From an uncultured bacterium (GTDB taxonomy: Bacteria > Verrucomicrobiota > Kiritimatiellia > CAIVKH01), in the NCBI GenBank assembly GCA_937958885.1, contig CALGMT010000015.1:4280-68279 (forward strand): a stretch of 64,000 nucleotides of DNA. Reading direction: 5' to 3'. The notes beneath the pieces were generated by a model that saw only the letters and a program-made list of their open reading frames with translations, was not told the origin of the DNA and ran no database searches. Below, one piece after another: positions 2,812 to 53,150 of the stretch; within the stretch, counting starts at the first letter, position 1; each line of letters starts with the position of its first letter. Both the position numbers and the translations under genes were made by a program.

Positions 2812-3852
2812 TCACACGCCGGCCGCCGCGGAAGAGACCGCGGGGCGTCCGGAGGGGCAGCAGTTTTCGGGACACACGTCGTGCTTCGGCGGCATCGCGC
2901 CGACGACGCGCTTCGGCGTCGCGGGATCGACGCGCTCCAGCACGAGTTCGCCGAGCATTTCGACAAACAGCGGATGCGTGCCGGGCGTGGCGGCGCGGAT
3001 CATGGGCAGCCGGAGCTCCTGCGCGAGTTCCCTTGCCTCGCGGTCGAGATCGTAGAGCACTTCCATGTGATCGGAGATGAATCCGATCGGCGCGAGGATC
3101 ACGGCGGAGGCGCCGCGATCGCGCGCGACGCGGATCGCATCGCACACATCCGGCTCGAGCCAGGGCTGGGACGGCGGCCCGCTGCGGCTTTGATAGACCA
3201 GCCGCCACTCGGAAATTCCCGCGGCCTGCGCGGTCAGCCGTGAGGCCTCGTGCAGTTGCTTTTCGTAGGCACAACCGATCGCCATCGAAACGGGAATACT
3301 GTGCGCGGTAAATAGTGTGATCGGACGCGCGCGGGCGTCGTCGGGCAGGCGGGCGTACGCCTGCTTCCAGTGGCGAGCCCAGACGTCGATGAACAGCGGG
3401 TGGTTGAACCAGACGCGGATCTTGTCGAACGCGGGGGCATCGGAGCCGAGCGGCGCGAGCGCCTTCGCGATGTCCTCGCGGTACTGGCGGCACCCGGAGT
3501 AGCAACTGAAGCCGCTGGTGACGAGTGTGAGGAATCGGCGGACGCCGTCGGCCTGCATCTGCTGGGCGACATCCGCAATCAGCGGGTGCCAGTTGCGGTT
3601 CGCGAGGTAGATGGGCATGGCGATGCCGCGTCGCTCGAGTTCGACTTCGAGCGCGGCTTGCAGTTGACGGTTTTGCAGGTTGATCGGGCTGACGCCGCCA
3701 AAGAGTTCGTAATGGTGCGCGACTTCGCGCTTGCGTTCTTCGGGCACGTTGCGCCCGCGCAGCACATTGTCGAGGAACGGCATGACGTCGTTCATGCCCT
3801 CGGGTCCGCCAAAGGACATAATCAGCAGCGCGTCGTAGGGATTGTGCGTCAT
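2812..3852 (-). CDS. hemH: ferrochelatase
   Basis: ATG at 3852 (MTHNPYDALLIMSFGGPEG) gives 346 aa with FTAHSIP and SGPPSQPWLEPD motifs. A C-terminal Cys cluster (CPENCC) may bind 2Fe-2S. The 227 upstream codons of the 573-aa track ORF are an Arg/His-rich shadow over the divergent EamA gene. Confidence 0.9.
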   Translation of the reverse strand: MTHNPYDALLIMSFGGPEGMNDVMPFLDNVLRGRNVPEERKREVAHHYELFGGVSPINLQNRQLQAALEVELERRGIAMPIYLANRNWHPLIADVAQQMQADGVRRFLTLVTSGFSCYSGCRQYREDIAKALAPLGSDAPAFDKIRVWFNHPLFIDVWARHWKQAYARLPDDARARPITLFTAHSIPVSMAIGCAYEKQLHEASRLTAQAAGISEWRLVYQSRSGPPSQPWLEPDVCDAIRVARDRGASAVILAPIGFISDHMEVLYDLDREARELAQELRLPMIRAATPGTHPLFVEMLGELVLERVDPATPKRVVGAMPPKHDVCPENCCPSGRPAVSSAAAGV

Positions 3853-3930
3853 GCTCCTATATCGCACGAGACGCTGGCGCCTTTCAAGAATCGGCGCTAC
3901 CTTCGCCGGGTGGCGATACGCTCTCCCAGA

Positions 3931-4800
3931 ATGTCCGGGCTGCTGTACATGCTGGCGGCCTCCGTGGTGATGGCGCTGGTGGGCACGTCGGTGAAGTGGG
4001 CGACGGACGGCTTGCCGGCGCCGGTGGTGGTGTTCTTTCGGAACCTCTTCGGCCTCGTTGTACTGTTGCCGTGGCTGGGGACGCCGGGCGGGATCACGCT
4101 GCGCACGCAGCAGATTCGCTATCACGCGCTGCGCTGCGTGTTCGGGTTTCTTGCGATGCAGTGCTATTTCTTCGCCCTTTCGAAACTGCATCTCGGGAGC
4201 GCGGTTGCGCTGAATTTTACCTCGCCGCTCTGGATTCCATTCATCGCGTTCTTTTGGCTGCGCGAGCCGCTGACGCGGCGCGTGTTGTTGGCGTCGCTGG
4301 TGGGACTGGCGGGCGTGTGGACGATCCGAACGCCGGAGAGCGGGGTTTGGTCGCTCGCGGGCGCGATGGGATTGCTCTCCGCTTTTTTTGCGTCGGGCGC
4401 GCTGGTGGGCGTGCGTCGCCTCACGCTGGCGGGAGAGCCGGCGGGCCGGATCGTGTTTTATTTCGCCCTCGGCTCGACCGTATTCACGGCGCTGCCGGTC
4501 CCGTTTTTCTGGAAGATGCCGACGGCGCATCAATGGCTTGCGCTGGCGGCGACGGGGGCGCTGGCGTCGCTCGCGCAGTTCTTGCTGTCGCGCGGATTCG
4601 CGCGCGCGCCGGCTGCGGTCGCGGCGGTGGCGTATTATGGAACGGTTCCCGCGGCAGCGTTTTTCGGGTGGTGGTTTTGGGGCGAACGATTGACGCCGGC
4701 CTTCGCGCTCGGCGCCGCGCTCATTTGTGCGGCGGGCATTGCGGCGTCTCTTCCAGCGCGGGCGAAACGCGAGGCGGCGCCGATCACGGCGGAGCCGTGA
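3931..4800 (+). CDS. EamA/DMT family transporter
   Basis: ATG 3931 (MSGLLYMLAASVVMALVG). About ten hydrophobic helices in two EamA-like halves. The upstream part of the 476-aa track ORF is antisense to hemH. Confidence 0.85.
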   Translation: MSGLLYMLAASVVMALVGTSVKWATDGLPAPVVVFFRNLFGLVVLLPWLGTPGGITLRTQQIRYHALRCVFGFLAMQCYFFALSKLHLGSAVALNFTSPLWIPFIAFFWLREPLTRRVLLASLVGLAGVWTIRTPESGVWSLAGAMGLLSAFFASGALVGVRRLTLAGEPAGRIVFYFALGSTVFTALPVPFFWKMPTAHQWLALAATGALASLAQFLLSRGFARAPAAVAAVAYYGTVPAAAFFGWWFWGERLTPAFALGAALICAAGIAASLPARAKREAAPITAEP

Positions 4801-4801
4801 A

Positions 4802-5527
4802 TTATGCCGACGCGGCCGGCGGCTTCGCCGGCGGTTCCGGCTTGAGCCCCCGCATCAGCAAATCCGGGCGCCGCGCGCGGGTGCGGGCTGCGGATTGCTC
4901 GGCCCGCCAGCGCGCGATTTCCTCGTGATGTCCGGTGAGCAGCGCGTCCGGCACTCGCATCCCTCGAAACTCGGCGGGGCGCGTGTATTGCGGGTATTCG
5001 AGCGCGCCGTCGCTGAACGATTCCTGCTCCGCGGCGCCCTCGCCGCCGAGCACGCCCGGCAGCAGACGAACCACGGCATCAATCACCACGGCGGCGGGCA
5101 ACACGCCGTTGGTCAGCACATAGTCGCCGATTGACAACTCATCCGTGACGAGGGCTTCGCGCACGCGTTCGTCCACGCCCTCGTAGTGGCCGCAGATAAA
5201 TATCAGGTGCCGCTCGGCGGATAATTCCCGTGCGACGGCCTGCGTGAACACGCGGCCCTGCGGGCACATCAGGATAACGCGGCTTTCGGGCGTGCGAACC
5301 GACTCAACGGCGGCGAAGATCGGCTCCGGCTTCATCACCATTCCCGGTCCGCCGCCGAACGGGCGGTCGTCGGTGGTCTGGTGTTTGTCCGTTGCAAAAT
5401 CGCGGAGGTTGATTGTTCGAAGATCGAGTGCGCCCTTTTGCGCCGCGCGCTTCATCATGCTGGCCCGGAGAAAACCGTCCAACATTTCGGGGAATATCGT
5501 AATAACCTCAATGCGCACGCCGTGCAC
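4802..5527 (-). CDS. trmD: tRNA (guanine37-N1)-methyltransferase
   Basis: 241 aa, [10 protein letters not shown] and [11 protein letters not shown] motifs. Confidence 0.95.
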
Positions 5528-5647
5528 TATAAACCGATCCGCCCCAAAAAATCGCGATCTGAATTTGGTATCGGAATCGATCTCGGTCTAGGCCTCGGCC
5601 TCGAAATCCACTCCCTGCACAGCGCGCCGCCCAGACAGGCGGACGCG

Positions 5648-5878
5648 CTATTCCACCACTTCCAGCACGACGCGGCGGTTATCTTTCGCGCCGAGGGCGA
5701 GCGCGAGCGTGCGGAGGGACTGAATAACCTTGCCGTTCTTGCCGATTACTTTGCCGACATCGTCGGCGTGGCAACGGATTTCCATCACGACGGTTTTTTC
5801 GCCGTCGATGGAGGCGATGGAGAGTTCGGATGGGTGGTCCACGAACCACCGCAACGTGTCGGCGACAAATGCTTTCAT
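5648..5878 (-). CDS. KH domain RNA-binding protein (YlqC-like)
   Basis: 76 aa with the KH GxxG loop VIGKNGKVIQSLRTL. Sits at the conserved position between rpsP and trmD. Confidence 0.85.
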   Translation of the reverse strand: MKAFVADTLRWFVDHPSELSIASIDGEKTVVMEIRCHADDVGKVIGKNGKVIQSLRTLALALGAKDNRRVVLEVVE

Positions 5879-5888
5879 GCAGACGGGA

Positions 5889-6149
5889 TCAGGCGGTCGC
5901 CTGCGCCGGGGCGGACTTGCGTTGCTTCTTGACGAGTGTCGATACGGAATCGGTCAACTGCGCGCCGCGCGAAAGCCAGTGGTCGATGCGCGCAAGGTCC
6001 AATTCGAAATTCTGCTTCGACCGCTTCGGGTCGTACCAGCCGACATTCTCGATAAACTGACCGTTGATCTTTCGTTTGACGTCCGCGACGACAATGCGGA
6101 AAAAGGGCTTCTTATTGTTGCCCATGCGAACGAGTCGAATCTTGACCAT
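5889..6149 (-). CDS. rpsP: 30S ribosomal protein S16
   Basis: MVKIRLVRMGNNKKPFFRIVVAD, typical bS16. Confidence 0.95.
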   Translation of the reverse strand: MVKIRLVRMGNNKKPFFRIVVADVKRKINGQFIENVGWYDPKRSKQNFELDLARIDHWLSRGAQLTDSVSTLVKKQRKSAPAQATA

Positions 6150-6188
6150 GCTTCCTCCAAACTCCTGAAACGAGCCGGACTTGATACC

Positions 6189-7523
6189 CTAACGCCCGAA
6201 ACGCAGCAACTTTTTTCGCTGCTTTTTCATGCGCTTGGCCATATCGCGCGCCATTTCGAATCGCTTGAGCAGCTCGTTGACGTCTCGCACCTGCGTGCCG
6301 CTCCCCAGCGCGACCCGACGCCGGCGGCTTGCATTCATGAGGCTAGGCTGACGGCGCTCGGCGGGGGTCATGCTCTGAATGATGGCCTCCGTCCGCTTCA
6401 TCTCCCGCCCGGCATCCGCGCCGAATGAGTCTCGCAGATGGCCCGGCAGTTGAGCGGCGCCCGGCATCATTTCCAACAGATTCTCCAGCGGCCCCAGTTT
6501 CTTGATCTGGCGCAATTGATCGAGAAAGTCTTCCAGCGTAAAGTCATCCGCCAGAAGTTTTTGCTGCATTTCCTCCGCCGATTTCTCGTCTATCGCGGCC
6601 TGTGCTCGTTCGACGAGGGTCACCACATCGCCCATGCCGAGGATACGCGAGGCCATCCGGTCGGGATGAAAGATTTCGAGGTCCTCCGGACGTTCGCCAA
6701 GCCCAACCATCAGGATCGGGCACCCGGTGACATGGCGCACCGAGAGAGCGGCGCCGCCGCGGGCGTCGCCGTCGAGCTTTGTCAGGATAAGCCCCGTGAC
6801 GCCCACTTCCTTATTAAAAGTCTCGGCCACGTGTACCGACTCCTGCCCGATCGCGGCGTCGAGCACGAGGATGACGTTCGCCGGCTGTACCGCCGATTTT
6901 AGGTCCTTCAATTCCGCGACCAGTTCGGCGTCGATCTGGAACCGACCCCCGGTGTCGAAAATCACGACATCGATTTTGTTGTCGCGCGCGTGTTGAAGGG
7001 CGCGCGCGCCAATCGCGGGCACGGTTTCGCCGGGGTTCGGCGTCAGGATGCCGACGCCGACTTGCGCGGCAAGGAGGCGAAGCTGCTCCACGGCGGCCGG
7101 ACGGCGGATATCGCAGGCGGTGAGGAGGACGCTGCGGCCGCTTTTCTTCCATCGAGCCGCGAGTTTCGCGGTGGTGGTGGTTTTTCCGGACCCGTGCAGG
7201 CCGATCATCATCACCGTTGCGGGGCGATTCTTGAGATCGAACTCGCGGGATTCGCCCCCCAGCAGCGCGACCAACTCATCATGCACATGTTTGACGAACT
7301 GCTGGCCCGGCGACACGCTTTCCAGCACGTCGGCTCCAAGGGCCTTCTCGCGCACGCGCGAGATGAACTCTTTGACGACTGTGAAATTGACATCCGCCTC
7401 GAGCAGGGCGAGCCGCACCTCGCGGAGCGCGTCTTGCACATTCTTCTCGTTCAGCTTGCCGTAGCCGCGCAGGTCGCGGAAGACCTTCTGCAGCGCGCCG
7501 GATAGTTTGTCAAAAAGGGCCAT
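6189..7523 (-). CDS. ffh: signal recognition particle protein
   Basis: 444 aa. Has GLHGSGKTTT P-loop, DTGGR, TKLDGDARGGAALS and a Met-rich C-terminal M domain. Confidence 0.95.
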   Translation of the reverse strand: MALFDKLSGALQKVFRDLRGYGKLNEKNVQDALREVRLALLEADVNFTVVKEFISRVREKALGADVLESVSPGQQFVKHVHDELVALLGGESREFDLKNRPATVMMIGLHGSGKTTTTAKLAARWKKSGRSVLLTACDIRRPAAVEQLRLLAAQVGVGILTPNPGETVPAIGARALQHARDNKIDVVIFDTGGRFQIDAELVAELKDLKSAVQPANVILVLDAAIGQESVHVAETFNKEVGVTGLILTKLDGDARGGAALSVRHVTGCPILMVGLGERPEDLEIFHPDRMASRILGMGDVVTLVERAQAAIDEKSAEEMQQKLLADDFTLEDFLDQLRQIKKLGPLENLLEMMPGAAQLPGHLRDSFGADAGREMKRTEAIIQSMTPAERRQPSLMNASRRRRVALGSGTQVRDVNELLKRFEMARDMAKRMKKQRKKLLRFGR

Positions 7524-7529
7524 GGTTGC

Positions 7530-8096
7530 TCATCGCGTTTCGTTTTCAGTTTTCGGAGTTTGAGACCGGAGCTCAGATTCCGCAGCCGATGTTGGTTGAT
7601 CGGGGAGCGCGTCCTCCGCCTCGACGGCCTGCGCCGGACCGAATCGCGGGATGGGCGCCAGATATACCGGCGGCGGCGCGCCTTCGCGGCGGACCAGACC
7701 GCGTCCGTCGCAGCGCCGGCACCAGCGCCACTCGCCGTTATCGTCTTCGATTCGCCCAAAGCCGCCGCAGGCCGGGCACAATACGTCGTCCTCATCCATC
7801 CGCCGTATCTGGCGCGAGCCCAAGCCGAAGCAGGCCGGGCACATCTGGAGTTGCCGCCCGCCTTTTTCGTCGGACTGAGAGAGGACGCCGAGGCCGCGGC
7901 AATGATCGCAACGAATGCGTTCGACCGCGAATGGCGCAAACTTGTGCTTGTTTTGCGCCGTCCAGAAGACCTGCCCGATCAGCGTGACGCCGCAGACCGC
8001 GACCACCGCGAGGATGTACATCGAGCGGCGCGGATCGTCGCGCATCCGGCGCGGGCGCGAACGCGGAGCTACATGCAGTGACGGGGCTTTAAACAT
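7530..8096 (-). CDS. membrane-anchored protein with DnaJ-type zinc-finger domain (4x CxxCxGxG)
   Basis: Start placed at ATG 8096 (MFKAPS), an 8-nt overlap with the prmC stop. Basic N-terminus, one TM helix (MYILAVVAVCGVTLIGQVFW), then CDHCRGLG, CPACFGLG, CPACGGFG and CRRCDGRG. Confidence 0.7.
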   Translation of the reverse strand: MFKAPSLHVAPRSRPRRMRDDPRRSMYILAVVAVCGVTLIGQVFWTAQNKHKFAPFAVERIRCDHCRGLGVLSQSDEKGGRQLQMCPACFGLGSRQIRRMDEDDVLCPACGGFGRIEDDNGEWRWCRRCDGRGLVRREGAPPPVYLAPIPRFGPAQAVEAEDALPDQPTSAAESELRSQTPKTENETR

Positions 8097-8952
8097 CGGC
8101 TTGTCGGGCCTCGGCGAAACGATCGCGGCCCGCAAGATCGCGCCGAATGGCGACATCCGCGAATCCGTGCGCAGTCAACAGTTCGCGCACCGCAGGGCCC
8201 TGTTCGTTTCCGATTTCCATCCAGACTCTACCACCGGGCGCGAGCGCGTGGCGAGCTTGCTCGACTAATCGTCGGATCACAGCCAATCCGTCCGCGCCGC
8301 CGATCAGCGCCACACGCGGCTCGTGGTCGCGCACCTCCGGGTCCAGTCGCGCCCACTCGCCCTCCGCAATGTAGGGCGGATTCGAGACGACGGCGCGCAA
8401 CGACTGCGCGGGCAATCCCGAAAGCAAATCGCCCTGCCGCCACACGATCCGATCCTCTGCGCCGAACCGTTGCGCATTCGCTCGCGCAAGGGCAAGCGCT
8501 TCGGGCGAAAGGTCGATTGCGATCACGCTTGCCGACGGACGCTCCAGCGCAAGCGTGACCGCCAGACAACCGGTACCCGTGCCGACATCCGCAATAGTCG
8601 GCGCCGGGTGCGACCAAACCGTCTCATCCGCCAGCACGCGCTCGCACAACTCCTCCGTCTCGGGCCGCGGGATCAACGCCCGCGCATCGCACACGAAGTC
8701 GCGCCCCAGAAACGGCGCAGTCCCCAACACATACTGCAGCGGCTCGCCGCGCGCCACGCGCGGCGCCCATTCGTCCAGCCGCGCGCGCGCGGCCTCGTCG
8801 ACAAGCCGCGCGCCCTGCGCCGCGACATCGAGACGTCCGACGCCCGCCGCCGCAGCCACGAGCCACTCGGCCAACACCCGCGCATCCCCTCGTCCCGCGT
8901 CCGCTATGACGGACTCGACGGCGCGCAGCATTTCCTGAAGGGTGATCGACAT
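8089..8952 (-). CDS. prmC: release factor glutamine N5-methyltransferase
   Basis: ATG 8952 (MSITLQEML), 36 nt after the prfA stop. SAM motif DVGTGTGC and NPPY present. The 116 upstream codons of the track ORF overlap prfA in another frame. Confidence 0.9.
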   Translation of the reverse strand: MSITLQEMLRAVESVIADAGRGDARVLAEWLVAAAAGVGRLDVAAQGARLVDEAARARLDEWAPRVARGEPLQYVLGTAPFLGRDFVCDARALIPRPETEELCERVLADETVWSHPAPTIADVGTGTGCLAVTLALERPSASVIAIDLSPEALALARANAQRFGAEDRIVWRQGDLLSGLPAQSLRAVVSNPPYIAEGEWARLDPEVRDHEPRVALIGGADGLAVIRRLVEQARHALAPGGRVWMEIGNEQGPAVRELLTAHGFADVAIRRDLAGRDRFAEARQADV

Positions 8953-22964: not shown

Positions 22965-23081
22965 ACCCGGCAACGTGCTACTCTCCCGAAGACTACACTT
23001 CAGTACCATCGCCGCTGAGGGTCTTAACGGCCGTGTTCGGAATGGGAACGGGTGTTTCCCCCTCGCTATGGTCACCGGGAA
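22965..23081 (-). rRNA. rrf: 5S rRNA
   Basis: Minus strand reads TTCCCGGTGACCATAGCGAGGGGG...CCGAACACGG...GGGAGAGTAGCACGTTGCCGGG, with closing helix I. Ends are approximate. Confidence 0.9.
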
Positions 23082-23152
23082 ATCGGTGTCCCGCATCTGC
23101 GGGAAAAACATTGCATAGGATGGGTCCATACATTCATCGAAAAAGAGAAATA

Positions 23153-26108
<2,956 letters not shown>

Positions 26109-26301
26109 AACATTCATTGGTCGCCGACCGCGTCTTTTGCGAACGCGATCGGTTACGATCTTCTTCGGTGAAGATTGTATGTTCCCATCCTATGCAATTG
26201 TCAAAGAACCGCCCTCCGCCGGCCGCCATCGGCGACCCGCGTCGGGAAATCGGTTGAAGCAAGAGGGCGCCGCGTTCGGCGCTGCCGTCGACCGCGCCGG
26301 C

Positions 26302-26378
26302 TGGTGGGCGTGCCTGGATTCGAACCAGGGACCTCGTCCTTATCAGGGACGCGCTCTAACCAACTGAGCTACACGCCC
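26302..26378 (-). tRNA. tRNA-Ile (anticodon GAT)
   Basis: GGGCGTGTAGCTCAGTTGGTTAGAGC...CTGATAA...TTCGAATCC...CGCCCACCA. CCA is encoded. Confidence 0.95.
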
Positions 26379-26413
26379 ATCTGACCCTTGAACATCCGCG
26401 GCGAATGTTCACG

Positions 26414-26489
26414 TGGTGGAGGCAACCGGGTTCGAACCGGTGACCTTCTGCTTGCAAAGCAGACGCTCTACCAGCTGAGCTATGCCCCC
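26414..26489 (-). tRNA. tRNA-Ala (anticodon TGC)
   Basis: GGGGGCATAGCTCAGCTGGTAGAGC...TTTGCAA...TTCGAACCC...GCCTCCACCA. The G3:U70 identity pair is present and CCA is encoded. Confidence 0.95.
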
Positions 26490-26738
26490 GTGACCTCGGT
26501 CGCGGAGTCGCGCTCATCCGGCCACCCGGCTCGATCTCTCGCTTCGTCGGACTACTTGCTATGCGGAAAATGCTTCGGTGCAGAAATGGTGCGGCTTGTG
26601 CGGCCATACGGTGGCCGCGCGTTGCCGCGCGGCCGGCGACCTGTCCGAAAACAGGCCGTTATCCTCTCGTTGACAAGGCTCAGCCCAAGGATCCGGCATC
26701 GCTGCCTTCACGCTTTTGCTGCGGCCCTGTCGCGGATG

Positions 26739-28301
<1,563 letters not shown>

Positions 28302-28577
28302 AGGAAAGTTTTTTCGCTGCCCACCCTCTCGGATGCGCAGCGCGTCAATTCTGACAGGCTATCTCTCGATAACCCCGATCTTACTCAAACTGACGTATAA
28401 CCTCACACAAGCCACACCACTTCTAAACCGAAGCGGCATAGCAAGTATTCCATTTTCAAAGAGCTGATCAACGAGACGAAAATACTCAATCGCCCTCTTC
28501 TAAAGCTCGAAGCGGGCGCTTGAGCAACTGCACGTTGATAAAGACCATGAGGCTTTTCAACCTCAAGTTCTGGAATG

Positions 28578-49598: not shown

Positions 49599-50462
49599 AT
49601 GAGGTTTGACATGGTTAACAAACAGATTGTGCTACTGCTCGTTGCCAGCACGTTAGCCTTTTCGCCTCACGCGCATGGGACAATAGCCTTCGATTCGGCC
49701 TCCGATCCCGCGTACGGTGGCGGGTGGACTAATGGGTCGAATGGCGGGTACGGATTCGGACCGTGGAATCTCAGTCATCCATCGCCATCGACCACGTTTG
49801 GAATTGGACCTTCGACGGCGAACGGCGATGGGCTAGATGACGGCGTGTATAACGGTGTGCCGAGCGACGGCGATATCGGCATCGCGCTGCGTTTGCAGGG
49901 AACAAACGCTACCGCAACAGCGGGGCGATTGTTTTCATCGGGTCGACTGGCCATCGGCCAGACGTTTTCCATCGATTTTGATAACGGGGATTATGGCTAT
50001 GAAACCCGATATGCCATACAGCTTTATCAAACTGATTCCAGTTTTAACCCAGTTGATCTCGCATTTGAATTATTTCTACACTTAGGCTCTTTCTACGGAT
50101 ATTTGGACACTGGGTTTGGCACTACGACGTTGATTGAATACGGGACGGAAGGACTGCGATTCTCGTTCAGTCTCACCGGGGAAATTGATTATGGCACCGC
50201 AACGAACTACAGCTATGTCGCTTCGTTGGTGCGCGCCGACGGCGTTTCCACGTCCTGGACAGGCGAGGTGGCGTATCGCCCCGACTATCTGCAACTCGAA
50301 CATTCTATCCCGATAGGAGCGGATGCAACGGTGAACGGCTTCTATGTCAACAATCTATCGATAGTTCCGGAACCTTCCACGCTGGCAATTCTTGTATGTG
50401 GAGCGGGATGTCTTTGGTTGCGTACGCGATATCTGGCGCATAGGGCGAGGGTCAAGGGATAG
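49599..50462 (+). CDS. PEP-CTERM sorting domain-containing protein
   Basis: The C-terminus VPEPSTLAILVCGAGCLWLRTRYLAHR is a PEP motif, a TM helix and a basic tail. N-terminal signal present. ATG 49611 (GAGG upstream) is an alternative start. The gene is visibly less GC-rich than its neighbours. Confidence 0.85.
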   Translation: MRFDMVNKQIVLLLVASTLAFSPHAHGTIAFDSASDPAYGGGWTNGSNGGYGFGPWNLSHPSPSTTFGIGPSTANGDGLDDGVYNGVPSDGDIGIALRLQGTNATATAGRLFSSGRLAIGQTFSIDFDNGDYGYETRYAIQLYQTDSSFNPVDLAFELFLHLGSFYGYLDTGFGTTTLIEYGTEGLRFSFSLTGEIDYGTATNYSYVASLVRADGVSTSWTGEVAYRPDYLQLEHSIPIGADATVNGFYVNNLSIVPEPSTLAILVCGAGCLWLRTRYLAHRARVKG

Positions 50463-50702
50463 GCCGTTTAGGGGCTGTTGCCCAAATCATGTTCCCCCAA
50501 AACACCTTGCCCATCGGGCGCCGCAATGCGGAGTTAACCCACCCCGCCCTTCGGGCACCCCTCGGGAGGAGGGGACTACTCATTCGGTCCCCTCCCGGGA
50601 GGGGTCCGCGAAGCGGGGGGGGTGTTTTTCCCGGATCCGAACCGACCTTTGCTTTGCGAATATAGAGAACTTCTATCAACAGCCCGTTTGGGCAACAGCT
50701 CC
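50462..50702. mobile_element. MITE-like element with 16-bp terminal inverted repeats
   Basis: GGGGCTGTTGCCCAAA (50471-50486) pairs with TTTGGGCAACAGCTCC (50687-50702), 15 of 16 complementary. An internal GC hairpin lies at about 50549-50607. A partial second copy is at 42645-42780. Confidence 0.65.
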
Positions 50703-50804
50703 ACCGAGACCCATGCAGAGCTTCCAAACGACTGTGGCGCTTACGGGCTTCTGGGGCCGGCGGGCGGAAGATTGACAAAATCAGGCGTTTGGAGAATGAT
50801 CCTG

Positions 50805-50993
50805 ATGTCTATGAAGAGTAACCCTTCCAAAGACACGGCGGTTAACAGCGGTGTGACCGGGGCAAAGACCCCGCCTCCCAAAGGCATAACGCGCCGCCGG
50901 GCGATCAAGGTCGGCGTGTTCTCGCTGGCGACCGCATTGCCGATTGTGATGACCATCGCACCCACCGAGGCGCGTGGCTCCGACCCCTCTTAA
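50805..50993 (+). CDS. candidate substrate peptide, twin-arginine-signal-like, ending in Ser (62 aa)
   Basis: MSMKSNPSKDTAVNSGVTGAKTPPPKGITRRRAIKVGVFSLATALPIVMTIAPTEARGSDPS. GGAG lies 10 nt upstream, third codon positions are G/C-rich, and the 3' end overlaps the kinase start. ATG 50796 and 50811 are alternative starts. Confidence 0.5.
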   Translation: MSMKSNPSKDTAVNSGVTGAKTPPPKGITRRRAIKVGVFSLATALPIVMTIAPTEARGSDPS

Positions 50994-51813
50994 TCGCGAC
51001 CCTGTCACGCAGCGCTGTTTCGGCGGGTCGATCATTGTTTCCCTTCAGGCTCCTGCGCCGGTGATCGCGGCGTATGAGCGGCTTTTCGCAGCGTTCCCGT
51101 CTTCCGCGAACGGCGAGGAAACGGAACGGCTTGAAATCCGAGTGATTGCCCAGGATGCCCGGTGGGCGGTTGAGCTGGACGGCCTGCGCGCGGCTGCCTT
51201 TGAGACGGCAGCGCACATCCCGCCGTTTCTCGAAACGCTGGTGTGCCAATTTCTGATCCAACACCGCGCGGACCGTATCCCGATCCACGCCGCCGGCGTG
51301 GCGTCGGCGGCGGGTGTCGTCCTGATGCCGGGCGAGAAGGGGAGCGGCAAGTCCACGTTGAGTCTGTGGCTGGCTCAGCGCGGCTACGCTTATTTCGGGG
51401 ATGAATTGCTCTGGATCGATCCGACCTCCGCACTGCTGGAGCCGTATCCGAAGGCCGCGGCGATCAAGGCGGGGTCGTTCGCCCTTTTTGACGAGGCCGA
51501 GATCTTCGTCAGTCCGACGCGCGGGCCGCTGCGTTATTTCGCGCCCGGTGAAAGGGCGGCGCCGCTGGATACGGCTCGACCCGCCGCGCGGATCGTTTTC
51601 CCGCATTTCAATCGCGAAGAGCCGGCCGGGGTGTATCCGTTGTGTCCGGAGGAAACCTTGCTTTATTTGTCGCAGATGCTTTTCGGCGGGCTGGCGCGCA
51701 GGCCCGAGCGCTTTCCCGCCCTCGCGCGGCTCGCGCAAACGCCCGCGGTACTCGCTGTGTATCGGGATGCGCGCGAGATCGAGGAGTGGTTGCGCGCGGA
51801 AGTCCTATCATGA
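50974..51813 (+). CDS. HPr-kinase-related (HprK C-terminal domain-like) kinase
   Basis: GTG start. HAAGVASAAGVVLMPGEKGSGKSTLSLWLAQRGYAYFGDE fits the HprK P-loop region. Confidence 0.85.
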   Translation: MAPTPLNRDPVTQRCFGGSIIVSLQAPAPVIAAYERLFAAFPSSANGEETERLEIRVIAQDARWAVELDGLRAAAFETAAHIPPFLETLVCQFLIQHRADRIPIHAAGVASAAGVVLMPGEKGSGKSTLSLWLAQRGYAYFGDELLWIDPTSALLEPYPKAAAIKAGSFALFDEAEIFVSPTRGPLRYFAPGERAAPLDTARPAARIVFPHFNREEPAGVYPLCPEETLLYLSQMLFGGLARRPERFPALARLAQTPAVLAVYRDAREIEEWLRAEVLS

Positions 51814-53150
51814 AGCGCGAGATCGAGCATCTGTGCGAGTGTCTCTGGTGGGCGATCGGTCAACGCGGGCCCGCGACGGCGGCCGAGCCGGATTGGTCCC
51901 GCTGGCTTGCGCTGGTGGACGAACACAAGCTCGGCGCATTCCTCTACAGCCGCTTGCGCGGCCGCGCCGAGTGGCCGGAACAGGTGCGATCCGCGCTGGC
52001 CGCGCAGCACGTCACCTCGGGATTTCTCAACGGGCTGCGCCTGCGCGAGCAGGCGCGCATCCTCGCGCGGATCCTCCCCGCGGCGCGGTGTGTGGTGCTC
52101 AAGGGCGCCGCGCTTGCGCTCACGCGCTACGCCGAAGCGGCGGAGCGCGATATGGTGGACTTGGATTTGTTTTGCGCGCGGCGCGAAGATGTCGATACAG
52201 CGCTCGACATCCTGCGCGCGAACCAGTACGCGCCGACGCGCGCGATACCCGGCCACCATCATTTGCCGCCGATGCTGCATCGCTCGGGGCGCCTTTCGGT
52301 CGAGCTGCACACCAATTTGACGACCCCCGGTTTGCCGTCCGCGTTTCTTGAACAATTCTTCGCGGATCGCGTGCACGTTTCGACACCCGGTGGAATCGCC
52401 GTGCCGGTGGCCGATCGCGCGCACCTTCTTTTTCATCATGGACTGCACACGCTGAAAGACCCGATTGAGAGCCCGCTGCTCCGCAATTTATTCGAGATCG
52501 CGTGGATGGCCTCCGACTTCGGTCCGGACGAGTGGACGCGGTTCACCCGCATCGCGGAATCGAGCGGGCGCAGCGAGGTCGTGCGCCGCGCGTTGGCGCT
52601 CGCGCGCGATTATTTTCCGGTGGACTTGCCGCCGTTCAAGCGGCCCCGCTACAGCTCGATCGAGTTTTGGGCGCGCCGTCGACTGGGCTGGATCGAGGAC
52701 GCCATGCGCCCGGCGACTCGTCGCTTGCGCCACATCGGCGTGAAGCATTTCGACCGGATGCCGTCCGGACGCTGGCGCACGGATGCGCTCGACATGGCGC
52801 GTGTGGCGGCGGTCAGCGTGAAGAACGGGATTGCGCATCATGCGCGCGCGCGGCTCGCGCCTCTTCGCGGGGCGCTGCTGCATCGGGTGGAGGCGCATGA
52901 ACTGGCCTTTGGCGAACATGCCGCGCTGTTGCGGCCCGAATCGGGACAGGTGTTTGTGTTGCGCGGCGATGCGATCGCCGTGTGGCGGGCGGCGGCGGCG
53001 CCCGTGTCGGGCGCGGAACTCTACCGCCGCCTGCTCGCGCAGGGCCTGCCGCCGCGCGCCGCGCGTCGCGCGGTGCGCTCGCTGTTGGCACTGGAGCTGA
53101 TCGCGCCGGCGTCAAATACTGCTGGAGCGCACGGCGCGCCGGACCTATAA
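51810..53150 (+). CDS. nucleotidyltransferase family (PF14907-like) protein fused to a C-terminal PqqD-like RRE domain
   Basis: ATG 51810 overlaps the kinase stop (ATGA). The N-terminal part has VVLKGAALALTRYAEAAERDMVDLDLF. The last ~85 aa (ALLRPESGQVFVLRGDAIAVWRAAAAPVSGAELYRRLLAQGLPPRAARRAVRSLLALELI) fit the PqqD pattern. Confidence 0.85.
   Translation: MKREIEHLCECLWWAIGQRGPATAAEPDWSRWLALVDEHKLGAFLYSRLRGRAEWPEQVRSALAAQHVTSGFLNGLRLREQARILARILPAARCVVLKGAALALTRYAEAAERDMVDLDLFCARREDVDTALDILRANQYAPTRAIPGHHHLPPMLHRSGRLSVELHTNLTTPGLPSAFLEQFFADRVHVSTPGGIAVPVADRAHLLFHHGLHTLKDPIESPLLRNLFEIAWMASDFGPDEWTRFTRIAESSGRSEVVRRALALARDYFPVDLPPFKRPRYSSIEFWARRRLGWIEDAMRPATRRLRHIGVKHFDRMPSGRWRTDALDMARVAAVSVKNGIAHHARARLAPLRGALLHRVEAHELAFGEHAALLRPESGQVFVLRGDAIAVWRAAAAPVSGAELYRRLLAQGLPPRAARRAVRSLLALELIAPASNTAGAHGAPDL

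Follow-up and report, generated by a model that had tools for sequence, protein, structure and literature searches.

A conserved small peptide with a twin-arginine-like signal is encoded in a cassette with an HprK-like kinase and a nucleotidyltransferase and may be their exported substrate

Within a 64,000-nt stretch of DNA from an uncultured bacterium of the Kiritimatiellia (the whole stretch is called the window below; contig CALGMT010000015.1, positions 4,280 to 68,279), we analyzed a small open reading frame (ORF) at 50805-50993 that lies directly in front of genes for an HprK-like kinase and a nucleotidyltransferase (NTase). Its 62-aa product, MSMKSNPSKDTAVNSGVTGAKTPPPKGITRRRAIKVGVFSLATALPIVMTIAPTEARGSDPS, had been described from the letters alone (the sequence-only reading) as a peptide that resembles a twin-arginine signal, has almost no mature part, ends in Ser, and might be a substrate of the neighboring enzymes. 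Our analysis showed that the ORF is a real gene of a conserved family, and that in every independent context it is followed by the same two enzyme genes. We see an about even chance that the peptide is the ribosomal substrate and leader of this three-gene cassette, modified in the cytoplasm, exported by the twin-arginine translocation (Tat) pathway, and then cleaved. The features of the locus are as follows, with a slash marking a candidate cleavage position here and below.

50772-50800, plus strand: sigma-70-type promoter (TTGACA at 50772-50777, a 17-nt spacer, AATGAT at 50795-50800; 10 of 12 consensus matches)
50805-50993, plus strand: gene for the putative precursor or substrate peptide (ATG 50805, TAA 50991-50993; 62 aa plus stop; gene-called, conserved, under purifying selection)
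50805-50888, plus strand: polar n-region, M1-I28, with the initiator Met as the sole conserved column in the alignments
50889-50909, plus strand: twin-arginine motif T-R-R-R-A-I-K, T29-K35 (RR in 32 of 32 family members; family matches to TIGR01409 and PF10518)
50910-50963, plus strand: hydrophobic h-region VGVFSLATALPIVMTIAP, V36-P53, 18 uncharged residues with a conserved L-P-x-V...T..P block (L45, P46, T50, and P53 invariant or nearly so)
50964-50978, plus strand: c-region T-E-A-R-G, T54-G58, with candidate signal-peptidase-I sites TEA/R and ARG/S and a basic residue (E55 and A56 invariant or nearly so)
50979-50990, plus strand: tail S-D-P-S, S59-S62, putative core and acceptor residues (family tails are 3-8 aa and always hold Ser or Thr)
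50974-51813, plus strand: HprK-like P-loop kinase, 279 aa as counted from its likely start (TIGR04352; Walker A GEKGSGKST at about 51331-51357)
51810-53150, plus strand: PF14907 NTase, 446 aa (E=2.4e-32; catalytic D-x-D at about 52158-52166)
52878-53090, plus strand: predicted peptide-recognition domain of the PqqD type, NTase residues ~357-427 (PF05402, profile match to TbiB1, structural model)

The evidence confirms that the window ORF is a real gene under purifying selection. The identical 62-aa product (P0001) has already been gene-called in NCBI, ENA, and Logan assemblies, and the third-position G/C bias that had been likened to that of genuine genes is borne out, at 0.75 for the peptide ORF vs 0.76 for the kinase gene. 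Orthologous peptide loci were recovered in L001, L002, L005/L006, and L007 (locus numbers are our own). Across the 32 alignable codons (GITRRR...TEARG), the ratio of non-synonymous to synonymous substitution rates (dN/dS) is 0.07-0.19, with synonymous sites near saturation, and L001 and L002 are separated by 11 synonymous and no non-synonymous differences. The stop position is conserved, the N-terminal ~25 residues show no conservation among orthologs, and other possible starts lie at 50796 and 50811. The features that had been picked out by eye (T-R-R-R-A-I-K, the 18-residue stretch, TEA followed by RGSDPS, TTGACA, and GGAG) are all present, and the peptide does have almost no mature part, with 4-6 residues beyond the predicted cleavage site.

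The promoter listed above is the sole promoter-like site within 50400-51200, where 0.2 would be expected. ATTGACAAAA and an AATnaT hexamer are kept in five orthologous loci in which the adjoining DNA is not alignable, and the TTGACA at 50772 that had been pointed out previously is the -35 part of this promoter. The GGAG that had been noted 10 nt upstream fared worse. Because it sits inside the promoter spacer (50791-50794) and varies between loci (GAAG, GGAG, or TGGG), it probably does not act as a Shine-Dalgarno sequence. The ATG of L005 and of L007 follows the -10 hexamer by ~10 nt, which suggests leaderless or near-leaderless mRNAs, and judging from this arrangement the peptide mRNA probably has little or no leader. 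No terminator-like site was found between the peptide and kinase genes, and no hairpin or attenuator either, as folding energies there were no better than those of shuffles in eight loci. Rfam matches in the window were confined to rRNA and tRNA genes.

An exhaustive HMMER search and a profile search placed the peptide in a family of 32 clusters whose members are 36-87 aa long, the lowest E-values reaching 1e-23, with the consensus ..[ST]RRxx[IL]K..LPxVxTLAPTEA[RK]AQxS. The loci of relatives were reached through exact-protein look-ups; profile scans of genome and metagenome contig collections with the peptide and kinase alignments returned nothing, which suggests that the clade is rare. After a variable, polar n-region, the members share the motif [ST]-R-R-x-x-[ILV]-[KR], whose conservation had been proposed as a check and whose RR proved invariant (32/32). 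In nearly all of them the h-region consists of 18-19 uncharged residues, containing L-P-[LIV]-[VI]-x-T-[LIM]-x-P and with a mean Kyte-Doolittle hydropathy mostly of 1.6-2.0. T-E-A-[RKH]-[AG] follows in nearly every member, completing a near-invariant block, LPxVxTLAPTEA[RK]A. Of the members, 31 have an A-[RKH]-[AG] site and P0036 has A-Q-A in its place, with a helix-breaking Pro at about -6 of the A-x-[AG] site. The tails, 3-8 residues long, are composed of S, T, G, D, E, P, and Q. Conservation of the terminal Ser, the other proposed check, holds in part: this residue is frequent (27 of 32 members) and not universal, the others ending in G, P, or A with a Ser or Thr elsewhere in the tail. The h/c-region is the best-conserved part of the peptide, while the n-region and tail vary; this strong conservation is unusual for a plain signal and is what would be expected of a leader recognized by an enzyme.

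Tat signals follow the consensus S/T-R-R-x-F-L-K, in which the RR is essentially invariant, and they combine an uncharged, moderately hydrophobic h-region with a c-region that has an A-x-A site and often a basic residue. The family shares with them the motif [ST]-R-R-x-x-[LI]-[KR], a moderately hydrophobic h-region of 18-19 aa, the basic c-region residue, and the A-x-A site. Among curated profiles, only Tat-signal models recur as matches when the 32 members are scanned: TIGR01409 is matched by 8 (best 2e-5) and PF10518 by 6 (best 1e-3), alongside matches to the signal segment of the small subunit of hydrogenase (6 members) and to formate_TAT (2). However, Tat signal peptides of these types (TIGR01409, PF10518, and TIGR02811 formate_TAT) carry a passenger, which the family essentially lacks, and the h/c-region of ordinary Tat signals is far less conserved in sequence. 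The description of the peptide as Tat-signal-like stands as regards the RR, the h-region, and the A-x-A site; the curated profiles speak both ways, matching some relatives and not the window peptide itself.

In all eight independent peptide contexts, the peptide gene is directly followed by the kinase gene and then by the gene for the NTase with its recognition domain, so that the ORF is conserved upstream of homologous enzyme pairs, as the sequence-only reading had asked to be checked. The readable loci of family members are the window, L001, L002, L005/6, L007, L011, L012/13, L014/15, and L016. Their flanks are unrelated, comprising dapF-mazG-HAD in the clade of the window, SpoU/MBOAT/AlgX, a purple acid phosphatase, and CLIPPER-domain proteins, and because the flanking genes differ between contexts, the conserved unit is the three-gene cassette. 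No protease or transporter gene was found in the flanks of the eight contexts. The gene layout indicates that the three genes are tightly coupled. In L012 the kinase start lies 1 nt past the peptide stop, and in the window the NTase ATG (51810) overlaps the kinase stop. Public gene calls place the start of the window kinase at GTG 51061 (250 aa), but homology reaches 18 residues further upstream. As homology to P0008 runs from residue 12 of the 279-aa reading and GTG 50974 is the sole in-frame upstream start, this GTG is likely the true start, and the kinase gene would share the final 20 nt of the peptide gene. In the 250-aa kinase model, confidence is low for the first 20 residues, consistent with truncation.

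The kinase matches TIGR04352, 'HprK-related kinase A', with E=2.7e-20 and 72.6 bits, under the 200-bit cut-off of that model, and its orthologs carry precomputed matches to PF27840 (ScmC). The Walker A sequence GEKGSGKST and a GD[ED] motif are invariant in the kinase alignment. The best sequence matches in the PDB are HPr kinases (3tqf and 1ko7), and an AlphaFold2 model (pLDDT 89.9) matches PEPCK and HprK/P structures with a probability of 1.00. In an alignment of 10 NTase homologs, the invariant positions are K98, G99, E112, R113, D117, D119, and a triad at H149-151, with a G-x11-13-D-x-D signature, and the model of the N-terminal domain matches the nucleotidyltransferases MenT1, ANT(2'')-Ia, and TM1012. 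The window NTase had no NCBIfam match, and a plasmid search with it also returned no match.

Three lines of evidence, from profiles and modeling, indicate that the last ~90 residues of the NTase are a peptide-recognition domain, corresponding to the recognition element (RRE) of pathways for peptides that are made by ribosomes and modified after translation (RiPPs). PF05402 (PqqD) matches this part weakly (E=0.017), and a profile of eight NTase homologs has as its best PDB match the lasso RRE TbiB1 (5v1u, E=0.004), with TfuB1 lower down. The structural model, taken from an NTase model of moderate quality that was built from a 3-sequence alignment (pLDDT 68), has a beta-sheet followed by three helices, with four short strands assigned by DSSP. 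It superposes on leader-bound TbiB1 (5v1v_A) with a root-mean-square deviation of 2.6 A over 82 columns (TM 0.66), and also matches the RREs of CteB, McbB, MccB, and LynD. All 10 aligned homologs have the PqqD domain as a C-terminal fusion to the NTase, in L012 in truncated form.

The same association extends to more distant systems. We inspected five distant cassettes with an HprK-like kinase, PqqD, NTase, and a separate upstream ORF, comprising three canonical HPr-rel-A systems and two in which the RRE is fused to the kinase. In all five, the upstream ORF has an RR-signal-like N-terminus, and its mature part measures about 45 to 210 residues. In the canonical system L017 (TIGR04352 kinase, 245.9 bits; TIGR04353 PqqD, 65 bits), this ORF encodes 143 aa (...VTRRRALMMGAITASAVVSIKPALA/QTAGS...) and is the only non-family sequence matched by the hidden Markov model of the peptide family (E=0.016). 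The counterpart on a Sphingomonas parapaucimobilis plasmid has 161 aa (...TSRRMLMLGAVGASTVIAVRPALA/QTTAS...). On Vibrio alfacsensis plasmids, the upstream ORF has 270 aa (...FSRRRFIRSAAISSPILLSIKSPSAWA/GGYNSS...) and is followed by an unannotated PqqD-like ORF. On plasmid NZ_CP140104 (L020), we observed this 84-aa ORF at 3715-3969 (+), between the Tat-signal protein and 'HprK-related kinase A', and it is missing from the gene table of the plasmid database. In the two cassettes with a PqqD-kinase fusion, the upstream ORFs encode 94 aa on a Methylobacterium tardum plasmid (...GRRSALKAMGAVAAYTAPVLLATSIPTRAARA/SGSTSSS...) and 91 aa on a Parasedimentitalea psychrophila plasmid (...ERRELLVKAGCYAAATPAAVVVLLSTAKDAEA/SGIF...). 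A further plasmid, NZ_CP007129 of Gemmatirosa kalamazoonensis (L022), has at ~5650-6208 (+) a PqqD-like domain fused to a peptide of the form SRRRATMKMG...AAA/DSTG..., so that the recognition domain and presumed substrate appear to be in one polypeptide. This fused ORF also includes a Cys-rich peptide (...CTDLLRGCDINTCTGTCKRTF...), and the next gene encodes a membrane protein whose C-terminal half is thioredoxin-like; a long ORF on the opposite strand (7152-8495) resembles NTP_transf_5 enzymes by eye only.

We also tabulated 96 called or annotated genes in eight loci (three family-member contexts and the five distant cassettes) and applied a loose rule of RR plus at least 12 uncharged residues within the first 75 aa. 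This was passed by all eight ORFs immediately upstream of a cassette and, among the 88 other genes, by only 2. What the longer relatives conserve is not a terminal Ser but a Ser/Thr/Gly-rich stretch right after the A-x-A site, suggesting that the acceptor may be set by its distance from the leader, in the manner of Ser3 in the core of the linear polyphosphorylated peptides discussed below (PMC13381572). As far as these sequences indicate, an RR-signal-like N-terminus with an immediate Ser/Thr/Gly-rich stretch is the constant partner of the enzymes in four domain architectures, spanning at least three phyla, and the window family is the cargo-less minimal end of a range in which the mature part spans from ~210 down to 3 residues.

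The gene family and the cassette are solid, while the chemistry and the export route that we propose for them are speculative. A strong promoter of its own would drive synthesis of the peptide, whose mRNA is probably leaderless or nearly so, with the kinase and NTase translationally coupled to it. The RRE at the NTase C-terminus would then bind the h/c-region (LPxV..T..PTEA) in the cytoplasm, allowing the kinase to phosphorylate a Ser of the tail (S59 or S62) and the NTase to add a further group to the phosphate, which may be a hexose by analogy with PsmN or a nucleotidyl group. The N-terminal two-thirds of the peptide would thus act as a RiPP-type leader and a twin-arginine signal at once. 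The already modified peptide would be exported by Tat, which tolerates bulky cargo, and housekeeping signal peptidase I would cut after A-R-G (or T-E-A), freeing a modified peptide of 4-6 residues into the periplasm. On this proposal, the cassette has neither a protease nor an exporter of its own because the housekeeping signal peptidase and Tat would do both jobs. As to the modification site, by analogy the terminal Ser would fit paeninodin, and a Ser or Thr 2-4 residues past the A-x-A site would fit both the longer relatives and the linear polyphosphorylated peptides (LPP) discussed below.

Several observations weigh against a substrate that is modified and then exported by Tat. The window peptide has no match to TIGR01409 or PF10518 even at E<=10, and no TatA-like motif was found in the 64-kb window or in the fetched loci. 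Tat usually carries folded or cofactor-bearing passengers, and in this peptide a passenger is nearly absent. Normal signal peptides are less conserved than this one, and the RR and h-region could serve only enzyme recognition or membrane anchoring. Five of the 32 tails end in a residue other than Ser. There is also a sister clade of the enzymes (P0010-P0012, loci L008-L010; 55% identity) that has intact kinase, NTase, and RRE motifs and no peptide gene within ~9.7 kb (~6 kb upstream and 3 kb downstream), as searched by tblastn, two regular expressions, and a six-frame profile scan. A flavodoxin-like (FMN_red) gene at about 5309-6001 of these loci occupies the position of the peptide gene and promoter, with 54 bp between its end and the kinase. 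Either the substrate gene now lies at another place in the genome, or the enzymes can accept a different substrate. Finally, the NTase homolog LppN was inactive in a heterologous host (PMC13381572).

The closest described parallel is found in the LPP of Bacillota, which are encoded by lppA-K-B-S-D-N clusters and were described by Popov et al. (Nat Commun 2026; PMC13381572). In these a kinase, an RRE, and an NTase act on linear peptides, with phosphorylation of Ser3 in the core AQSNWK, and the leader is removed by a signal-peptidase-I homolog presented by the RRE (PMC13381572). Both systems have a linear ribosomal precursor with a conserved N-terminal leader and a variable C-terminal part, an HprK-like kinase, a PF14907 NTP-transferase, and an RRE of the PqqD/B1 type. 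The LPP acceptor Ser lies near the leader-core junction, which may be compared with A/Q-x-S in most members of the window family, and leader removal of the signal-peptidase-I type is proposed here for the window family as well. However, LPP clusters have LppS, a homolog of signal peptidase I of the archaeal type, and an MsbA-like pump, neither of which is present in the eight window-family contexts. The RRE is discrete in LPP and fused to the NTase in the window cassette. The leaders differ too (YxxPxVLxHQxIxFETxxS in LPP vs an RR-signal-like sequence here), with only P-x-V and the Ser after the junction being reminiscent, and the core of 3-8 aa in the window family compares with an overall precursor variability of 35-200 aa in LPP. 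While LPP hosts are Bacillota, those of the window family are uncultured high-GC bacteria, and relatives of the cassette occur in Alpha- and Gammaproteobacteria and in Gemmatimonadota.

The same two enzyme families tailor the lasso peptides paeninodin and pseudomycoidin (PadeK/PsmK and PsmN). In pseudomycoidin, PsmK and PsmN modify the C-terminal Ser by phosphorylation followed by hexosylation, and the D-x-D of PsmN is essential (PMC6993621); this motif is invariant in the NTases of the window family. The PsmK-type kinase acts on the C-terminal Ser of the precursor before further processing, and PsmN is needed for the hexose(s) on the phosphate. In contrast to these systems, the window cassette has no lasso cyclase, B2 protease, or ABC exporter, and its peptide is linear and tiny, with a terminal Ser that is not universal in the family. 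The HPr-rel-A system (TIGR04352 kinase A, TIGR04353 PqqD chaperone, and NTase) has the same three functions and gene order as the window cassette, and an upstream RR-signal ORF in the three canonical examples examined. It differs in its discrete PqqD upstream of the kinase (fused to the NTase in the window), in the size of the upstream protein's mature part (~95-210 aa vs 4-6 aa in the window), and in the score of its kinase, which in the canonical L017 clears the cut-off that the window kinase does not reach. Bufferins, which are RiPPs modified by MNIO enzymes, resemble the window family, as proposed here, in that a signal for general secretion and the signal peptidase of the housekeeping type take the place of a dedicated exporter and protease. 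Their signal is of the Sec type, unlike the Tat-type signal here, and is dispensable for modification; their cores measure 60-70 aa and their enzymes are unrelated. It has been argued for bufferins that bulky modifications make poor Sec substrates (PMC11626156), from which we infer a rationale for a Tat-type leader. Overall, the window cassette works like LPP or paeninodin-type tailoring and is evolutionarily related to HPr-rel-A, while by the defining features of each it falls outside all three.

We weighed four other explanations against the view of the peptide as a modified and exported precursor. Spurious ORFs are common in high-GC DNA, and several overlap this region on both strands, but the possibility that the frame arose by chance in the 5' untranslated region of a kinase operon, which was the null set out in the sequence-only reading, is refuted by family conservation and dN/dS: the low dN/dS with saturated synonymous sites, the synonymous-only change between L001 and L002, the 32-cluster family, the conserved stop, and the promoter directly upstream leave it practically no chance. 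It is equally hard to credit a lasso-peptide precursor with a tailored C-terminal Ser, as in paeninodin or pseudomycoidin. The pairing of an HprK-like kinase with a PF14907 NTase, the B1-like RRE, and the terminal Ser are held in common with that pathway (PMC6993621), yet no macrolactam synthetase (C) or B2 protease is encoded in any of the eight contexts, the aromatic YxxP leader motif is absent, and a variable C-terminal part of 3-8 residues is too short for a 7-9-residue ring and tail. We rejected this explanation for its missing B and C genes and its short core.

The remaining two explanations keep the gene and change the fate or role of its product. The peptide could be a substrate of the same enzymes that stays uncleaved, as a signal anchor with its N-terminus inside and its C-terminus outside, displaying a phospho-(glycosyl/nucleotidyl) tail in the periplasm; bound to the membrane, it might for instance serve an envelope glycan as primer or acceptor. 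Export by itself would not call for an h-region as conserved as this one, and its 18-19 uncharged residues, with hydropathy up to 2.0, are compatible with a short membrane helix; the same length falls in the range of cleavable signals, however, and every member has a good A-x-[AG] signal-peptidase site with a Pro at about -6. Polysaccharide genes stand beside some of the loci (MBOAT/AlgX in L012-L015, GT4 in L005, glmU/glmS in the canonical systems), and LPP clusters lie within capsule loci (PMC13381572), but the flanks are not consistently related to polysaccharides, and on balance we consider a displayed anchor unlikely. Distinctly less likely still is that the peptide is no substrate at all but a small membrane- or Tat-targeted regulator or scaffold, the enzymes acting on something else. 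This would also explain the clade L008-L010, in which the kinase and NTase-RRE are intact and no peptide gene adjoins them. On the other hand, the closest structural and sequence relatives of the RRE bind precursor leaders, the Gemmatirosa PqqD domain is fused straight to an RR-signal peptide, the upstream RR-signal ORF is constant across four domain architectures, and the HprK-like kinases of related characterized systems phosphorylate the adjacent precursor (PMC6993621, PMC13381572).

Returning to the modified and exported precursor, a broader proposal may be made, which we put forward tentatively and think somewhat more apt to be wrong than right. Cassettes of an HprK-like kinase, a PqqD/RRE domain, and a PF14907 enzyme, including HPr-rel-A, could represent a widespread pathway that modifies, in the cytoplasm, Ser or Thr at the mature start of proteins with twin-arginine signals. 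The Tat signal would double as the leader, and the prior decoration of the cargo would be the reason for using Tat. At the extreme without cargo, the window family would be a signal-only precursor with one product, a secreted phospho-(glycosyl/nucleotidyl) tetra- to octapeptide, with housekeeping Tat and signal peptidase replacing a dedicated exporter and protease.

In the full-text open-access literature, we found neither a paper on TIGR04352 or HPr-rel-A nor any report of what the canonical system does or acts on, and no paper tying a Tat signal peptide to a RiPP precursor, and the RRE-Finder paper does not mention kinase or nucleotidyltransferase RREs. No prior description of a system of the window type was found there either, although the absence of matches is no proof. 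If the proposal is correct, it would provide a substrate and a testable function for the HPr-rel-A cassettes, which are annotated in many genomes, and it would be the first RiPP-type pathway with a Tat-signal leader; RiPPs with Sec signals (bufferins) were reported only in 2024. It would also offer a simple reason for the use of Tat, namely modification before export, and would test the lower size limit of a Tat passenger. With ~35 conserved residues, a 4-residue tail, and two enzymes, the cassette is a very small model for leader recognition by an RRE, Ser phosphorylation, and PF14907 chemistry.

There are some further observations on the surroundings of the cassettes. In L012 (12946-15973) and L014 (1048-4216), which are unrelated contexts, an MBOAT (AlgI-like) gene and an AlgX-domain gene form a pair within a few kb of the cassette; such pairs are linked to polysaccharide O-acetylation. 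Downstream of the canonical systems L017 and L019 are glmU and glmS. Judging from these neighbors, a link of the cassettes to envelope glycans or to the supply of UDP-GlcNAc is possible. Two relatives of the window organism keep two other genes near the cassette. One is a bacterial gene with matches to the ubiquitin and Rad60-SLD Pfam models (L007, 2255-2731, minus strand), and the other, next to it, encodes a fusion of ~818 aa that joins a pyridine-nucleotide disulfide oxidoreductase with rhodanese, TusA, and DsrE (L005, 1-763; L007, 2901-5357, minus strand).

In the window, a complete rRNA operon (5S, 23S, two spacer tRNAs, and 16S) occupies 22965-28303 on the minus strand, and the EUB338 target site of its 16S gene, ACTCCTACGGGAGGCTGC, differs from the standard EUB338 I, II, and III targets. 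Directly upstream of the cassette, at 49599-50462 (+), is a gene whose 287-aa product bears a PEP-CTERM sorting signal (...VPEPSTLAILVCGAGCLWLRTRY...) and has weak matches to NCBIfam PEP-CTERM models. This gene is not kept beside the cassette in other loci, and its presence suggests that the host probably has an exosortase system.

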